Virus record (IMG/VR): IMGVR_UViG_3300027159_000392
Source of the DNA: an uncultured virus (IMG/VR IMGVR_UViG_3300027159_000392)
Taxonomy: Duplodnaviria > Heunggongvirae > Uroviricota > Caudoviricetes
Length of the DNA: 64,000 nucleotides
Direction: 5' to 3' (one strand)
How positions within the stretch are numbered: position 1 is the stretch's first letter; the number at the start of each line of letters is the position of its first letter. Positions 56,540 to 64,000 of this stretch are shown here, in pieces. The notes below the pieces were generated by a model. It saw only the letters and a list, made by a program, of their open reading frames with translations, had not been told where the DNA came from and did no database searches. The position numbers were made by a program, and so were the translations under genes.

Positions 56540-57358
56540 ATGGCAAAAAATGTTGTTGTAAGTCTAAGCGGAGGGATGGACTCCTCTACATTATTACTCA
56601 GATGTTTAAAAGAGTACGATCAAGTAACTGCTATATCTTTTGATTACGGTCAGAAGCATAGAGTTGAGCTAGAAAGAGCACAATCATTAGTAAATTATAT
56701 TAATGAGACTTGCCCTTCTGATAACGAATGTTTCGGAGGTTGCAAGATTAACTATCAAGTTATTAAACTAGACGGTTTAGTTAACTTACTAAATTCAGCA
56801 CTAACTGAAGGAGGAGAAGATGTACCGGAAGGTCATTATGAAGAAGATAACATGAAAGCTACAGTAGTACCTAATAGGAACAAGATATTTGCTTCTTTAG
56901 TACAAGCAGTAGCATTATCAGCAGCTACATCTAATGGTAACGATACAGATATCGCATTAGGAATTCATGCTGGTGATCATGCAATCTATCCTGACTGTAG
57001 ACAAGAGTTTAGAGATGCTGACGATAATGCCTTTAGATTAGGTAATTGGGAAGCTGAGAAAGTAGGGTATTTTACTCCTTATTTAGATACAGATAAACTA
57101 GGAATCTTAAAAGATGGACAGAAACTCATTAAAGAATTGGAATTGGATTTTAACGAAGTATACAAAAGAACGAATACCTCGTACAAACCATATCCAAGTG
57201 GAAACTCTGACTACAAAAGCGCTTCATCAGTTGAACGTATTGAAGCATTCATTGATTTGGGTGTTAATGATCCCGTTCAATATGAAGACGAAACTGGACC
57301 AGTTGATTATGAAGTTGCGAAAACACATGTAGCAAAATTACTAGCAGAATATGCATAA
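56540..57358 (+). CDS. queC: 7-cyano-7-deazaguanine (preQ0) synthase
   Basis: VSLSGGMDSST, FDYGQKH..EL, TVVPNRN, GIHAGD..IYPDCR.EF. Confidence 0.92.
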   Translation: MAKNVVVSLSGGMDSSTLLLRCLKEYDQVTAISFDYGQKHRVELERAQSLVNYINETCPSDNECFGGCKINYQVIKLDGLVNLLNSALTEGGEDVPEGHYEEDNMKATVVPNRNKIFASLVQAVALSAATSNGNDTDIALGIHAGDHAIYPDCRQEFRDADDNAFRLGNWEAEKVGYFTPYLDTDKLGILKDGQKLIKELELDFNEVYKRTNTSYKPYPSGNSDYKSASSVERIEAFIDLGVNDPVQYEDETGPVDYEVAKTHVAKLLAEYA

Positions 57359-57503: not shown

Positions 57504-57577
57504 GGGGGATTAGCTCAGCTGGCTAGAGCGCCTGCCTTGCACGCAGGAGGTCATCGGTTCGACTCCGATATTCTCCA
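57504..57577 (+). tRNA. tRNA-Ala (TGC), CCA not encoded
   Basis: Acceptor GGGGGAT/ATTCTCC with G3:U70; D arm TAGCTCAGCTGGCTAGAGC; anticodon arm CCTGC-CTTGCAC-GCAGG; T arm ATCGG-TTCGACT-CCGAT. Confidence 0.97.
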
Positions 57578-61333: not shown

Positions 61334-61362
61334 TTGCTTATGAAATAAAAAGTTCTTATATT
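61334..61362 (+). promoter_or_regulatory. TTG-N20-TATATT promoter of the queD-queE unit
   Basis: TTG at 61334, TATATT at 61357. Confidence 0.65.
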
Positions 61363-61378
61363 ATATATATATGACTAT

Positions 61379-61405
61379 AGTGTCGTAGTACCACTTTAAA
61401 AACAC
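61379..61405 (+). ncRNA. preQ1-I-like riboswitch aptamer (copy A)
   Basis: AGTG-TCGTAGTAC-CACT-TTAAAAACAC, 2 nt before ATG 61408, at the head of the unit containing queD and queE. Confidence 0.65.
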
Positions 61406-61407
61406 TT

Positions 61408-61647
61408 ATGAAAAAATTAGAAAAAAAGGTTATGCAAGAACTCTATAATAGAGAAGAAAGAGAGAATAATGCCTCTCTTGAGATCAATGGTCAGAAAGTA
61501 CCAGATCCAAAATTACACCAAACAATTTCATTTATTAAATCAGCTATCCGTATTTTAGGTTATGCTGCATTATGCTATAGTTTAGATTTAGCAGTAGGTT
61601 TACTTATATTAAGTGAAGGAATAGGAATTGTAGAAGAATTAGTTTAA
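61408..61647 (+). CDS. Small protein with hydrophobic C-terminal half
   Basis: ISFIKSAIRILGYAALCYSLDLAVGLLILSEGIGIVEELV. Confidence 0.6.
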   Translation: MKKLEKKVMQELYNREERENNASLEINGQKVPDPKLHQTISFIKSAIRILGYAALCYSLDLAVGLLILSEGIGIVEELV

Positions 61648-61657
61648 AAAATAAGTT

Positions 61658-62128
61658 ATGGGAAAATTTCAATCAACAAAAGTCTTTGACGGGTTTAGTA
61701 CTTGTTTTAGACAATGGAAAGCAGAAACTACTCACTGTAGATTCTTACATGGGTACGGAGTATCTTTTAAACTATGGTTTGAAGGAGAATTAGATGATAG
61801 GAACTGGGTATGGGACTTTGGAGGCATGAAAAGAGCTAAAGCTACGATAGACGGAATGTCTCCTAAAGCATGGATGGACTATATGTTTGATCATACGGTT
61901 ATAATTGCGGAAGATGATCCTCAACTTGCCGGGTACTTCAAAAAATTAGATAGAAACGGCACTATTCAGCTAAGAGTAATTGAAGCAGTAGGAGCAGAGA
62001 AATTTGCAGAGTACCTCTACAATAAAATTAATCCATTTTTGTTAGAAGAGACAGACGGCAGGGTAAAGCTAGCTAAAGTTGAATTTAGAGAACACGGTAA
62101 AAACACAGCATTATATGAGCCTAGGTAG
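61658..62128 (+). CDS. queD: 6-carboxy-5,6,7,8-tetrahydropterin synthase
   Basis: HCRFLHGY, WVWDFG, FDH, E..A, EFREH.KN.A.Y. Confidence 0.88.
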   Translation: MGKFQSTKVFDGFSTCFRQWKAETTHCRFLHGYGVSFKLWFEGELDDRNWVWDFGGMKRAKATIDGMSPKAWMDYMFDHTVIIAEDDPQLAGYFKKLDRNGTIQLRVIEAVGAEKFAEYLYNKINPFLLEETDGRVKLAKVEFREHGKNTALYEPR

Positions 62129-62894
62129 AATAGAAGATTACGATAAAAACTTACCGATCGTTGAAATATACACGGCAGTACAATCAGAAGGATCCAGAGC
62201 AGGTTATCCTACAGTGGTTATTAGGACTACTGGCTGTACTCATAGGTGTTATTTCGGAGAAGGTGGATGGTGTGATAGCTGGTATACTTCTATACATCCA
62301 GAAAAAGGAAAATACTCATTTAATGATATTATAAAAGCATATGACGATAATCCTCATATATCAGAAATGATGTTAACAGGAGGAAGTCCTTCTATGCATA
62401 AGAAACTAGTAAACGAATTAACACATTTAGCAAATGAAAGAAATATCTTCATTACTATGGAGAATGAAGGTAGCCATTTTCTACCTACTGATTATCCTAT
62501 TAATTTACTTTCAATCAGTCCGAAGTTCAGCAATTCGGTACCTGTACTCGGTGTCGAAACTCCTGAAGGAAAGATTACAGATGAGAAAATGATAAAGCAG
62601 CATAATAAGTTTAGACTTAATTACCCTGCTATAAAAGAAAGTATTGCATACCATTCAGACTACCATTTAAAGCCTGTATGGGACGGGAAAGACGAAGGAG
62701 CATTAGAAGAGATTATGGACTGTATAGAGCAATTGGATGCACCTAAGGATAAAGTATGGTTTATGCCTGCTGGGGATACTCGAGCAGCATTACAAAAGTC
62801 TTATCCAGTCATGTTTGATTGGGTTAGAGATAATGGATATAGATTAACCTGGAGACCGCATATTATTGCGTTTGAAGATCAAAGAGAAGTATAA
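62115..62894 (+). CDS. queE: 7-carboxy-7-deazaguanine synthase (radical SAM)
   Basis: EIY.AVQSEG..AG.PTV.IRT.GCTHRC...WCDS.YT, LTGG.P, ISPK, R.H; ATG at 62115 preferred. Confidence 0.9.
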
Positions 62895-63202
62895 TGAGTT
62901 TTATAATTGGATCACCTTGCGTTAGTACTTGCGATACAGCCTGTGTAGCAGTTTGCCCTGTAGACTGTATTCACGGTCCTATAGATATTACTGGAGCAGG
63001 AGCAGAAGTAGCAGGAATGTCCAAAGAAGACTTAATCGGTAAAAGCCTATACATAAACCCAGAAGAATGTATCGACTGTGGAGCTTGTGTTCCGGAATGC
63101 CCTGTAGAAGCAATTTTCGATAGTGAAGAAGAAGCAATCGAAGCAGGAGAAAAAGAGGCAGTTATTAACAACTATAAATTTTTCGGTTTAGATTATGAAT
63201 GA
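62894..63202 (+). CDS. Dicluster ferredoxin
   Basis: [17 protein letters not shown] and [17 protein letters not shown]; coupled to queE. Confidence 0.9.
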
Positions 63203-63368
63203 AAAAGAATTTGTACAGTGGTTAAAAGGATTCATAGAAGGAGTACACCACTATAATATTACTCCAGCTCAATTTGACCATTTAAAAGAGAAATTACAAT
63301 CAGTAGGTAATACCTCTATAGCAAACTATTCTACTGGCAACTGGGTAACGAATAATACATGGGAGTAA
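63195..63368 (+). CDS. Small hypothetical protein (57 aa, not in ORF track)
   Basis: [16 protein letters not shown]...NNTWE*; overlaps both neighbours. Confidence 0.6.
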
Positions 63369-63763
63369 AAAGAGTTTATTATAGTTGGGAGGATGTTTAT
63401 AAACTCCTCGATAACATACACGCACAAACAAAAGGAAAAATAGATTACGTAACAGGAATTCCTAGAGGAGGTACTATCTTAGCAATAATGTATTCACATC
63501 GTTTTGATATTCCTTACTTTGAATATAAAAGTAATCACTACCCTAGACTGTTAATTATAGATGATATAGCAGATAGTGGAGAGACAATATTAAAATGGAG
63601 AGAAGAAATGTTTAATCCTAAGTTTGCTACTCTACATTACAAAACATCCTCGAAAGCAAAACCAGAATATTTCGCAAAAGAGATACCTGATGATTACGGT
63701 TGGATTGTATACCCTTGGGAAAAAGAAACTTCCAAAACTATTCAAGATTATTTGGATGTTTAA
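63359..63763 (+). CDS. Type I phosphoribosyltransferase (xanthine-guanine PRT-like)
   Basis: GIPRGG, LLIIDDIADSGET (PRPP loop), WIVYPWE. Confidence 0.88.
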   Translation: MGVKRVYYSWEDVYKLLDNIHAQTKGKIDYVTGIPRGGTILAIMYSHRFDIPYFEYKSNHYPRLLIIDDIADSGETILKWREEMFNPKFATLHYKTSSKAKPEYFAKEIPDDYGWIVYPWEKETSKTIQDYLDV

Positions 63764-63780
63764 AATAAATTTCTTATCTT
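63752..63780 (+). promoter_or_regulatory. TTG-N20-TATCTT promoter of probable folE
   Basis: TTG at 63752, TATCTT at 63775. Confidence 0.65.
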
Positions 63781-63790
63781 TAATTAAGAA

Positions 63791-63818
63791 TGAGTCGTAG
63801 AACCTCAGTAAAAACAAA
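63791..63818 (+). ncRNA. preQ1-I-like riboswitch aptamer (copy B)
   Basis: TGAG-TCGTAGAAC-CTCA-GTAAAAACAAA, 9 nt before ATG 63828. Confidence 0.72.
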
Positions 63819-63827
63819 TTATATATT

Positions 63828-64000
63828 ATGCCTAAAAAGTTTATAGAAGGAACAGAATTAGTAAGAGCCGGATTCGCTAACGGTATTTCAACTCAACTAG
63901 CGGAAAAACAAAAGACAGAAGGACCAGAAGCTAGACTTACTGATCATGAAAAGCAAGTTATTATAAAAAGAGCATCAGAAGCATATGCAAACTTTTTAAC
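63828..64000 (+). CDS. folE: Probable GTP cyclohydrolase I N-terminus (truncated by the window end)
   Basis: MPKKFIEGTELVRAGFANG...LTDHEKQVIIKRASEAYANFL. The helix pattern resembles the FolE N-terminus and the context is queC/D/E; catalytic motifs lie outside the window. Confidence 0.55.
   Translation, partial: MPKKFIEGTELVRAGFANGISTQLAEKQKTEGPEARLTDHEKQVIIKRASEAYANFL

Follow-up and report, generated by a model that had tools for sequence, protein, structure and literature searches.

The closest described systems are the preQ1-I riboswitches, in particular type II, of the T. tengcongensis kind. In the accessible text of PMC11625349, type II is defined by the sequence AC before the 3′ strand of stem P1. 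The accessible part of PMC10622847 describes the C of L2 as the specificity base, with the A of L3 and the U of L1 reading the edge of the ligand. Type III, found before yhhQ in gamma-proteobacteria including E. coli, is characterised in the same partial texts (PMC10622847, PMC11625349) as a minimal class I aptamer for one ligand, with a tight, pyrimidine-rich loop, the AC specificity motif, UU after P1 and an AAGG tail.

Riboswitches carried by phage are called rare in the accessible text of a 2017 survey (PMC5473149), which gives two kinds and no others: glutamine aptamers, in two cyanophages, and c-di-GMP-I, in prophages of C. difficile. These are metabolite-sensing leaders, as we propose for the motif below, but neither senses the product of a phage DNA-modification pathway. 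The accessible text of a 2024 review of the preQ1 family (PMC11625349) does not contain the word 'phage'. Formyl-preQ1 replaces essentially all of the G in the DNA of phage immuto_2-6A (PMC10516641), and the terms 'riboswitch' and 'regulat' do not occur in the accessible text of that 2023 paper on the 7-deazaguanines of these phages. A search of main article texts returned no phage preQ1 or 7-deazaguanine riboswitch, and none that joined 'riboswitch' and 'DpdA'.

The DNA analysed here is a window of 64,000 nucleotides from the virus record IMGVR_UViG_3300027159_000392. It carries two copies of a motif that consists of a hairpin and an A-rich tail (Table 1). The consensus is a 4-bp stem P1, a loop U(C/U)G(N)AG(N)AC, an A-rich linker of about 7 nt, and then a C. 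A first-pass annotation had read both copies with these stems and loops, had placed TTG-N20-TATmTT boxes upstream of each, and had seen no Shine-Dalgarno sequence. All three readings hold: in particular, there is no Shine-Dalgarno-like purine run upstream of either ATG (61408 after copy A, 63828 after copy B). The promoter-like boxes probably match the Bacteroidota -33/-7 consensus. In most related phage leaders the arrangement GTTG...N19-21...TTATATT precedes the stem by 10–18 nt, and it is also kept in the folE leaders of relatives. At copy B, the -7-like box of the predicted promoter ends just 10 nt 5′ of P1.

Table 1. Features of the window that bear on the two motif copies.
Feature	Position	Strand	Basis or remark
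Copy A, aptamer-like motif	61379..61405	+	Read from sequence; R1 44.1 bits at 61375-61410
Copy A, parts	AGTG 61379-61382; loop TCGTAGTAC 61383-61391; CACT 61392-61395; tail TTAAAAACAC 61396-61405		C at 61403
Copy B, aptamer-like motif	63791..63818	+	Read from sequence; R1 44.3 bits at 63787-63822
Copy B, parts	TGAG 63791-63794; loop TCGTAGAAC 63795-63803; CTCA 63804-63807; tail GTAAAAACAAA 63808-63818		C at 63815
Promoter-like boxes before copy A	61334..61362	+	TTG 61334-61336, 20 nt, TATATT 61357-61362; read from sequence
Promoter-like boxes before copy B	63752..63780	+	TTG 63752-63754, 20 nt, TATCTT 63775-63780; read from sequence
queC	56540..57358	+	PF06508, 134.7 bits in virus record; phrog_1550 QueC-like
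79-aa ORF, first gene after copy A	61408..61647	+	Conserved small-protein family
queD (6-carboxytetrahydropterin synthase, PTPS family)	61658..62128	+	Pfam PF01242, E 1.6e-13
queE (radical SAM)	62115..62894	+	Weak Pfam Radical_SAM match; QueE in immuto and phiST annotation
4Fe-4S ferredoxin	62894..63202	+	Pfam Fer4 families
Phosphoribosyltransferase-domain protein	63359..63763	+	Pfam PF00156; phrog_8995
folE (GTP cyclohydrolase I), 5′ part, runs off window	63828..64000	+	PF01227

The genes next to the motif include those of the phage for 7-deazaguanine synthesis. The 79-aa ORF has no Pfam or PHROG match; its family has a variable N-terminus followed by a conserved PDPKLHQ..SF.KS.IRI..GY...SE.VGI.EELV. 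The queD gene is about 74% identical in DNA to the queD region of the immuto phage. For queE, gene calling listed a start at TTG 62079, while we read ATG 62115, which overlaps the end of queD, as the more likely one. FolE is complete in locus L293, with 237 residues (PF01227, E 2.4e-42). The queC gene has no copy of the motif, and R1, a covariance model of the motif, gives no match near it.

The first-pass annotation had argued from the lack of queF in the window that the ligand may be preQ0 or another deazaguanine. This argument fails, since QueF is encoded about 3.9 kb past the window end in the same virus record, and QueC lies inside the window (56540-57358). The record therefore contains both QueF and QueC, and the phage can make preQ1. 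In total it encodes FolE, QueD, QueE, QueC, QueF and a formyltransferase, the last adjoining a protein 74% identical to the DpdA of the immuto phage. QueC and QueF are both encoded by all five long motif-bearing contigs checked, which carry 2, 1, 2, 2 and 2 copies of the motif.

Within the window R1 matches in only two places, at 44.3 and 44.1 bits (both copies were included in the model by construction), and the next best match scores 13.7 bits. The two copies are also the only ones in the 156-kb virus record, and the loop sequence TCGTAGWAC occurs on the coding strand of all its 156,126 bases only at these two sites. The 9-mer on its own is without significance (2 occurrences against 0.47 expected, with 10 of 100 shuffles reaching 2), and it is conservation in other phages that sets the motif above chance.

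That conservation was seen in 80 viral loci retrieved by FolE protein similarity alone. R1 matches once in 57 of these, always on the sense strand and directly before the folE start, and nowhere else in their 119 kb at E ≤ 1. The loci comprise 56 distinct upstream regions, 38 of them with the loop, and 37 of these 38 have a fully complementary 4-bp stem, in 6 complementary versions; with shuffled stem partners the mean number complementary was 10.3 and the maximum 19. In immuto_2-6A, a Flavobacterium phage in culture, the ortholog of copy B lies before folE, and its stem is compensated (GGAG/CTCC). The motif is absent from 23 of the 80 loci, and in some of those the promoter persists but is followed by just a short, plain leader. 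Nor is there a copy ahead of queD in the immuto phage; the motif is thus dispensable.

A pattern scan of viral sequence gave at least 127 loci. Among the matches listed, a 4-bp stem is present in 77 rows, and in 76 of these an ATG follows within 25–33 nt; this ATG opens folE (27), queD (3), queE (3) or a member of the small ORF family found ahead of queD in the window (43), gene families being Pfam-verified on representatives only. One of the 77 listed rows, L013, looks like chance, and the 50 stemless rows listed are unrelated sequence. Among the matches listed, L080 and L110 are viral loci with a copy identical to copy A before the same small ORF family, and at least about 40 further loci have a near-identical one in that place. 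In L069/L091 and L105 the motif follows queD and precedes queE, and promoter-like boxes are missing there, which argues that it acts at the RNA level.

A search with R1 of 151 sampled Flavobacteriaceae genomes found nothing at E ≤ 0.1, with only about 45 candidates scored per genome; the positive control matched in 5 of 5 records. An exact-pattern genome scan likewise gave no stemmed match in any Flavobacteriia record. Relatives of the region, with 85–99% likeness, are present in four RNA-run assemblies. Two contigs start exactly at 61379 (X5) and at about 63787 (X8), and those of X1 and X6 extend upstream to 61332 and beyond. All 20 RNA runs, in which the share of sampled words is at most 0.09, are stored as contigs, which cannot show starts, and their libraries possibly contain DNA, so they are not informative on the transcript start.

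The stem covaries. In an alignment of 45 distinct rows from phage and bacteria, including both window copies, 98.9% of the P1 cells pair, and both sides change in three of the four pairs: the outer pair is AU in 16, UA in 11, CG in 8 and GC in 8 rows, the second GC in 36, CG in 8 and AU in 1, and the third UA in 30 and AU in 15. The closing G-C pair is invariant (45/45). The covariation score is 0.734, against at most 0.235 with slid partners. Loop and tail remain fixed while the stem pairs covary. Conservation and covariation in related leaders had both been put forward as checks on the riboswitch reading, and both came out in its favour.

These data bear on a reading in which the site works in DNA, either within a phage promoter or as an operator with a palindromic sequence. 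In its favour, the stem forms an inverted repeat, and in most leaders this lies 10–18 nt past promoter-like boxes. However, the half-sites vary yet stay complementary, the conserved parts are loop and tail, which are asymmetric, only the sense strand ever carries the motif, and it occurs promoter-free between queD and queE. We regard a DNA-level site as extremely improbable.

Folded in isolation, the P1 hairpins reach only -1.5 to -2 kcal/mol, and thermodynamic folding gave no signal (z-scores -0.46 to +1.45). So weak a P1 is what a fold that requires its ligand would look like. The minimum-energy fold of copy A is a competing hairpin within 61370-61387 that uses an upstream GAC kept in many small-ORF leaders. 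It was considered as an anti-aptamer and dropped, because it would form only 3 bp in other leaders.

As regards the pseudoknot, loop G6 with the tail C is the sole invariant candidate pair of P2, most instances having been selected by patterns that contain these bases. A table of every loop position against eight tail positions showed no covarying pair. Loop position 4 can pair with tail position 4 in 46 of 61 distinct phage instances, the tail being A-rich, and in the four instances where loop position 4 is changed the pairing is kept in one. The second pseudoknot pair of the first-pass annotation, a U-A in place of C-G, accordingly has no support from covariation. A pairing of loop CGU with the start codon AUG, noticed by eye, was rejected: A or G at loop position 4 would break it, and AUG cannot covary.

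The bases that mark type II are present throughout. The U after P1, the AC, and the A-run followed by C are kept in all 79 distinct instances (61 phage and 18 bacterial), most of which were retrieved or filtered by patterns requiring these bases; the independent support is therefore that of the 38 loop-bearing leaders retrieved by FolE similarity. All 38 of these, among the 56 distinct leaders, keep the AC before the 3′ strand of P1, which is also invariant in the alignment. The tail has an A-run of 4–8 followed by C in all instances, the retrieval patterns demanding these bases, and L3 is 7 nt long in 50 of 61 phage and 18 of 18 bacterial instances. With type II the motif shares the closing G-C pair of P1, the U after the 5′ strand, the AC, an L3 rich in A and, after it, a C that could form a pair with one G of the loop, a position adjoining a start codon, and an association with genes of the preQ1 pathway.

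There are also differences. In two natural examples, type II has a P1 of 4–5 G/C-rich pairs, whereas that of the phage motif has 4 bp and is A/U-rich. The type II loop is 10–12 nt long, against 9 nt here, and its tail is CAAGG, against CAC or CAA, so that no Shine-Dalgarno sequence is occluded in the phage leaders. Type II lies by tRNA queuosine genes and the phage motif by DNA-hypermodification genes. Type III would resemble the phage motif in its minimal size, tight loop, AC motif and single ligand, but the phage loop is purine-rich (UCGUAG.AC) and there is no AAGG.

No catalogued Rfam family fits the motif. A search with the preQ1 model RF00522 at relaxed thresholds, suggested earlier as a check, was negative: there was no match at either copy at the gathering score (cut-off 39 bits) over the window, nor at E ≤ 10 over 2.7 kb and 81-nt pieces. 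On pieces of this length an E of 10 is estimated as about 11–12 bits, and by this estimate the class I model scores the phage motif below about 12 bits. Its best matches in the whole virus record lie elsewhere (10.3 and 9.4 bits). The model also gives low scores to natural aptamers with a UCGCAG loop: in a Bacillota sample two of these fall below its own cut-off (L298, 37.5 bits; L299, 33 bits), with loops UCGCAGAACCAC and UCGCAGCCAC and a tail of an A-run and CAAGGAGG. The best R1 match in the 30-kb Bacillota set is the L298 aptamer itself (17.1 bits). Compared by sequence, the UCGCAG-loop aptamers are the closest natural relatives of the phage motif. The DUF805 RNA (RF03081) gave a weak local match to copy A through GUG...CAC and UUAAAAAC and was rejected, with 14.4 bits against a cut-off of 51.1, an E of 1.1 and the loop skipped; copy B has no match.

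The motif is also found in Proteobacteria. Of 71 loci in a genome scan, 49 carry CCUG/UCGUAGCAC/CAGG/U(U/A)AAAAACA, in Thalassospira, Vibrio, Marinomonas, Thaumasiovibrio, Leucothrix and others. It precedes queC in 34 and queD in 14, with one unresolved, making 48 of 49 before queC or queD (Pfam checked on 4). R1 scores these sites at 39–43 bits; RF00522 misses them, and its matches in four proteobacterial genomes lie elsewhere. The 9-nt loop, the 7-nt linker, the ACA(C) tail and the gene family context are the same as in phage. The P1, unlike that of phage, is G/C-rich, and the flanking sequence suggests a possible extra hairpin abutting the 5′ side. The gamma-proteobacterial leaders also differ in having a long expression platform with a hairpin that covers the Shine-Dalgarno sequence. 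When two folded leaders are combined, either the aptamer loop can pair with GUGCUGCA further downstream or a hairpin can form over the ribosome-binding site, which is how a riboswitch expression platform is laid out.

The proteobacterial leaders help to weigh two further readings. One is that hairpin and tail do not sense a metabolite but form an operator in the RNA, bound by a protein of phage or host that represses or activates translation. A short hairpin with a conserved loop beside a start codon is typical of such operators, the hairpin is unstable alone, and a conserved small protein with no assigned function comes first after the motif in 43 of the 77 stemmed rows among the matches listed. 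Against this, exactly this loop and tail are found in the queC/queD leaders of alpha- and gamma-proteobacteria, which have no phage protein in common; the folE copies and the intercistronic queE copies occur without an adjoining small ORF; and the conserved positions are exactly those of the type II preQ1-I ligand pocket. A protein operator therefore seems unlikely.

The other is a constitutive leader element, a translation enhancer or mRNA-stability hairpin that does not switch. Organisms of the Flavobacterium type initiate translation without a Shine-Dalgarno sequence, and an A-rich tail near the ATG could be of use for this alone, while 23 of the 80 FolE loci manage with no motif. But the motif is restricted to two sites in 156 kb, both in the deazaguanine pathway, a general enhancer would not keep to the genes folE, queD, queE and queC in phages and Proteobacteria alike, and a stability hairpin needs no invariant 9-nt loop. 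We consider this reading very improbable.

On the basis of these observations, we hypothesise that the motif is a candidate translational OFF switch of the preQ1-I kind, nearest to type II, that senses preQ1 or preQ0, and we regard this as probable. The original suggestion of preQ1-I-like leaders on the phage's 7-deazaguanine genes is supported at the level of sequence by the conservation, the covariation, the near-exclusive association with folE, queD, queE and queC, and the type II hallmarks. The two copies would lie in the 5′ leaders of two phage mRNAs, one for folE and the other for orf-queD-queE-ferredoxin-orf-PRTase, transcribed from the predicted promoters, and each would form a miniature aptamer with an H-type pseudoknot. 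Free preQ1, or its precursor preQ0, would stack between the closing G-C pair of P1 and the pair of loop G and tail C, and would be read by the C before the 3′ strand of P1, the U after its 5′ strand, and an A of the tail. Binding would hold the hairpin, otherwise very weak, together with the A-rich tail as a compact knot ending 4–12 nt upstream of the start codon. This would remove the unstructured A-rich stretch that is presumably used for ribosome loading on a Bacteroidota-type mRNA with no Shine-Dalgarno sequence, and with the loading region hidden, translation would fall. The outcome would be product feedback on FolE, the first step of the pathway, and on QueD and QueE, which would match the supply of base to its insertion into phage DNA by DpdA.

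The fold may be right and the ligand another: formylamino-methyl-7-deazaguanine, 7-carboxy-7-deazaguanine or guanine. The phage loop is one to three nt shorter than those of natural UCGCAG-loop aptamers, the motif is not recognised by RF00522, and a formyltransferase gene stands next to that of the DpdA homologue in the record; in the related immuto phage formyl-preQ1 is the base that ends up in the DNA, and the accessible text of the paper reporting this leaves undecided whether the free base or the DNA is formylated (PMC10516641), which weakens the case. Proteobacteria, ordinary organisms with the queuosine pathway, have this loop and tail ahead of queC and queD, and the motif retains U and A along with its specificity C. 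Such a change of ligand is in our view improbable. A wider proposal is that the motif represents the smallest preQ1-I branch yet (about 28 nt), adapted by phages to DNA hypermodification in place of tRNA queuosine and to mRNAs with no Shine-Dalgarno sequence, whose A-rich initiation region it would hide, with its ligand possibly shifted to preQ0 or formyl-preQ1, and that it is the first riboswitch to meter phage anti-restriction chemistry. Taken as a whole, we hold this to be rather doubtful.

The current Rfam model misses this whole branch of leaders, including those of queC and queD in marine Proteobacteria. If the motif binds a 7-deazaguanine base, these phages would be metering the supply of precursor for the wholesale replacement of G in their DNA. 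On the same condition, the phage leaders would offer a compact natural case of translation control by a riboswitch without a Shine-Dalgarno sequence, and the motif, with only 4 bp in its stem and 9 nt in its loop, would bring a very small aptamer into a family that serves as a model in work on RNA-ligand recognition and on drug targeting.

The two copies of the motif, each a small hairpin with an A-rich tail, were read at the positions where the first-pass annotation had placed them. The promoter-like boxes that it described (TTG-N20-TAT(A/C)TT) are present upstream of both, and no Shine-Dalgarno-like run is found at either start codon, that of the ORF behind copy A or that of folE, also as claimed. 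Bacteroidota mRNAs are generally without a Shine-Dalgarno sequence and favour unstructured A-rich upstream regions, and the Bacteroidota promoter type is TTG/TAnnTTTG. Copy A is followed, in order, by the 79-aa ORF, queD (PTPS), queE (radical SAM), a 4Fe-4S ferredoxin, a 57-aa ORF and a phosphoribosyltransferase. The product of folE, complete at 237 aa, matches GTP cyclohydrolase I. By itself the loop 9-mer is unremarkable in the window (2 occurrences versus 0.47 expected, with at least 2 in 10 of 100 shuffles); on the sense strand of the 156-kb virus record it occurs only in copies A and B.

Motif copies, queC and genes beyond folE in the virus record (L293, region of the record past the window end)
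Feature	Position	Sequence or content	Context
Copy A	61379-61405	AGTG/TCGTAGTAC/CACT/TTAAAAACAC	2 nt 5' of ATG 61408, 79-aa ORF
Copy B	63791-63818	TGAG/TCGTAGAAC/CTCA/GTAAAAACAAA	9 nt 5' of ATG 63828, folE
queC	56540-57358		inside window
Genes 3' of folE	past window end (L293)	cupin / mannose-6-phosphate-isomerase-like protein, MazG-like pyrophosphohydrolase, DpdA homologue, formyltransferase
Further genes	past window end (L293)	AAA_28 kinase-like, staphylococcal-nuclease-like protein, QueF, family A DNA polymerase, Hsp20, GroES, GroEL

By FolE protein similarity alone (70–100% identity), 80 viral loci were fetched, a choice in which the motif played no part. An alignment of 45 distinct rows (A2) was used to build R1, a covariance model for the motif. 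R1 matches 57 of the 80 loci, once each, on the sense strand and just 5' of the folE start, with no other match at E<=1 elsewhere in these loci (119 kb). The motif is thus conserved in orthologous leaders, as the proposal of preQ1-I-like riboswitches had implied. The loop is present in 38 of the 56 distinct upstream regions, and 37 of these 38 have four complementary stem pairs, drawn from six stem versions (GGAG/CTCC, TGAG/CTCA, TGTG/CACA, AGTG/CACT, GGTG/CACC and TAAG/CTTA). When the stem partners were shuffled (2000 trials), full stems numbered 10.3 on average and 19 at most. With the loop variants seen in this set, TTGAAGCAC, TCGGAGCAC and TCGAAGAAC, taken into account, the consensus of the loop is U(C/U)G(N)AG(N)AC. 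In the cultured Flavobacterium phage immuto_2-6A, a copy with a compensated stem precedes folE, and none precedes queD. The motif is missing at 23 of the 80 loci. Six relatives (L160, L162, L168, L184, L191 and L202) keep the promoter-like boxes before folE, followed by a short plain leader with no hairpin, so that some lineages have either lost the element or never acquired it.

The 4-bp stem, P1, is paired in 98.9% of cells of A2. Both sides change in three of the four pairs, the closing G-C pair being without variation, and the covariation score is 0.734, as against at most 0.235 for slid controls, which are 24–56% paired. The claim that the stems differ in sequence and still pair is supported, here as in the FolE set. 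The U-A pair proposed as the second pair of the pseudoknot fared less well, showing no covariation. In the candidate second helix, loop G6 and the tail C are the only bases without variation, and patterns that fix both served to choose most instances. P1 and the tail C are joined by a linker of 7 nt in 50 of 61 distinct phage instances. On their own the hairpins contribute just -1.5 to -2 kcal/mol, and the z-scores of folding do not stand out. For the copy A leader, the fold of lowest energy is a competing hairpin (61370-61387, -5.7 kcal/mol), in which an upstream UAUGAC pairs with GUCGUA of the stem-loop junction; its GAC is kept at that place in many small-ORF leaders, most of them limited to 3 bp. 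Among contigs of related phages from marine RNA libraries, one starts exactly at 61379, the first base of the copy A stem, another starts at about 63787, 4 nt 5' of the copy B stem, and others extend further upstream; transcript starts cannot be read from the ends of such contigs.

Scanned with a pattern, viral contigs gave at least 127 loci. Among the matches listed, 77 have the 4-bp stem, with an ATG 25–33 nt downstream in 76 of them. This ATG belongs to folE in 27 of the listed stemmed rows, to queD in 3, to queE in 3 and to the small-ORF family of the 79-aa ORF, which heads the queD operon, in 43; one stemmed row looks like chance, and the 50 stemless rows among the matches listed stand in unrelated sequence. 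Gene families were named by Pfam on representatives and by N-terminal likeness for the remainder. The percentage of pairing in these rows is circular because they were filtered on pairing, and the FolE set is the fair test. At L069/L091 and L105 the motif is intercistronic, with queD before it, queE after it and no promoter-like boxes, which places its action on the RNA. Four viral loci (L016, L022, L089 and L118) have the loop and A-run behind a 3-bp A/U stem (ATT/AAT), in a different context and with the ATG about 40 nt 3' of the loop; they are either diverged members or chance.

The 79-aa ORF (61408-61647) belongs to a conserved family of small proteins of 61–107 aa, without a Pfam or PHROG match. 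The N-terminus is variable, and a conserved C-terminal block is common to 20 aligned small ORFs. Residues P, K, H, Q, S, F, K, S, I and R are invariant in PD(P/A)K.HQ..SF.KS.IR, which is followed by a hydrophobic stretch with EELV at its end.

No Rfam 15 family reaches its gathering score on either copy. A search with the Rfam PreQ1 model (RF00522) at relaxed thresholds, which the first-pass annotation had suggested, was negative, because the model is absent at E<=10 on 2.7 kb and on 81-nt pieces around the copies and its best matches over the whole virus record (10.3 and 9.4 bits) lie away from the motif. A weak local match of DUF805 RNA to copy A (14.4 bits against a cut-off of 51.1) was rejected as a sign of membership.

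The RF00522 consensus has a 5-bp P1, a U and the loop, followed by AUAAAAAACUAAGG. Of 151 sampled Bacillota genomes, 6 contain matches to the model, at 9 sites in all. Two Bacillota sites with a UCGCAG...AC loop and an A-run-CAAGGAGG tail score 37.5 and 33 bits, under the Rfam cut-off, and among natural sequences they are the nearest relatives of the phage motif; the best R1 match in Bacillota loci is one of them, at 17.1 bits. Type II preQ1-I is defined by the AC before the 3' strand of P1 (PMC11625349). This C is the specificity base, the edge of the ligand being read by an adenine of L3 and a uridine of L1 (PMC10622847). The phage motif retains all of these features. Its differences from preQ1-I are an A/U-rich P1 of only 4 bp, a loop of 9 nt and the absence of a Shine-Dalgarno element from the tail.

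An exact-pattern scan of bacteria, with one genome per species, gave 71 loci (L214-L284). In 49 of these the element is CCUG/UCGUAGCAC/CAGG/U(U/A)AAAAACA, with the loop and tail of the phage motif, carried by marine Proteobacteria (Thalassospira, Vibrio, Marinomonas, Thaumasiovibrio, Leucothrix and others). The next gene in these proteobacterial loci is queC in 34 and queD in 14, with one left without assignment (Pfam confirmed for 4). Of the remaining loci, 20 fall short of four stem pairs, and 15 of these have just one; L247 and L248 are both phage-type copies (before the small ORF and folE) on one 5.9-kb contig binned as a Verrucomicrobiales MAG, which is probably a phage fragment in the wrong bin. 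RF00522 does not detect the proteobacterial queC/queD leaders; R1 gives one match per genome in four tested genomes (39–43 bits). This proteobacterial branch may already be catalogued. In the predicted minimum-energy fold of one gamma-proteobacterial leader the aptamer loop pairs with a downstream GUGCUGCA, and in that of another this stretch lies inside a hairpin over the ribosome-binding site. On these predictions the Vibrio and Marinomonas leaders could hold an expression platform, in which GUGCUGCA can either pair with the aptamer loop or form the RBS-covering hairpin. Inspection of the flanks by eye suggests a variable hairpin against the 5' side of the motif in bacterial loci (e.g. L226:1430-1530:-). 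A search of 151 sampled Flavobacteriaceae genomes with R1 gave no match; as few candidates were scored in each genome, this negative is weak.

The first-pass annotation had suggested preQ0 or another deazaguanine as the possible ligand because no queF is in the window. This is an effect of the window edge, since QueF is encoded further along the virus record. QueC and QueF are both present on all five long motif-bearing contigs checked, which have 2, 1, 2, 2 and 2 motif copies. The homologue of DpdA, the enzyme that inserts the modified base into phage DNA, is 267 aa long and 74% identical to that of immuto_2-6A, whose DNA has formyl-preQ1 in place of essentially all G (345,000 per million nucleotides; PMC10516641). 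Given the pathway genes, including QueC and QueF, and the formyl-preQ1 of immuto_2-6A, preQ1 or preQ0 is the most economical guess for the ligand; the end-product base is a bolder one. A tRNA gene (57504-57577; Rfam tRNA, 66.8 bits) lies about 150 nt 3' of queC.

In literature searches no phage riboswitch for preQ1 or another 7-deazaguanine came up, and a 2017 survey describes riboswitches in phages as rare, with just two kinds listed (PMC5473149). On the basis of sequence comparison, we consider that the motif is probably a 7-deazaguanine-sensing translational switch. With no ligand, the weak hairpin would be open and the A-rich leader accessible for ribosome loading. With ligand present, P1, the A-tract and the pair between loop G and tail C would close round the base, forming a knot that ends 4–12 nt 5' of the AUG, and initiation would fall.
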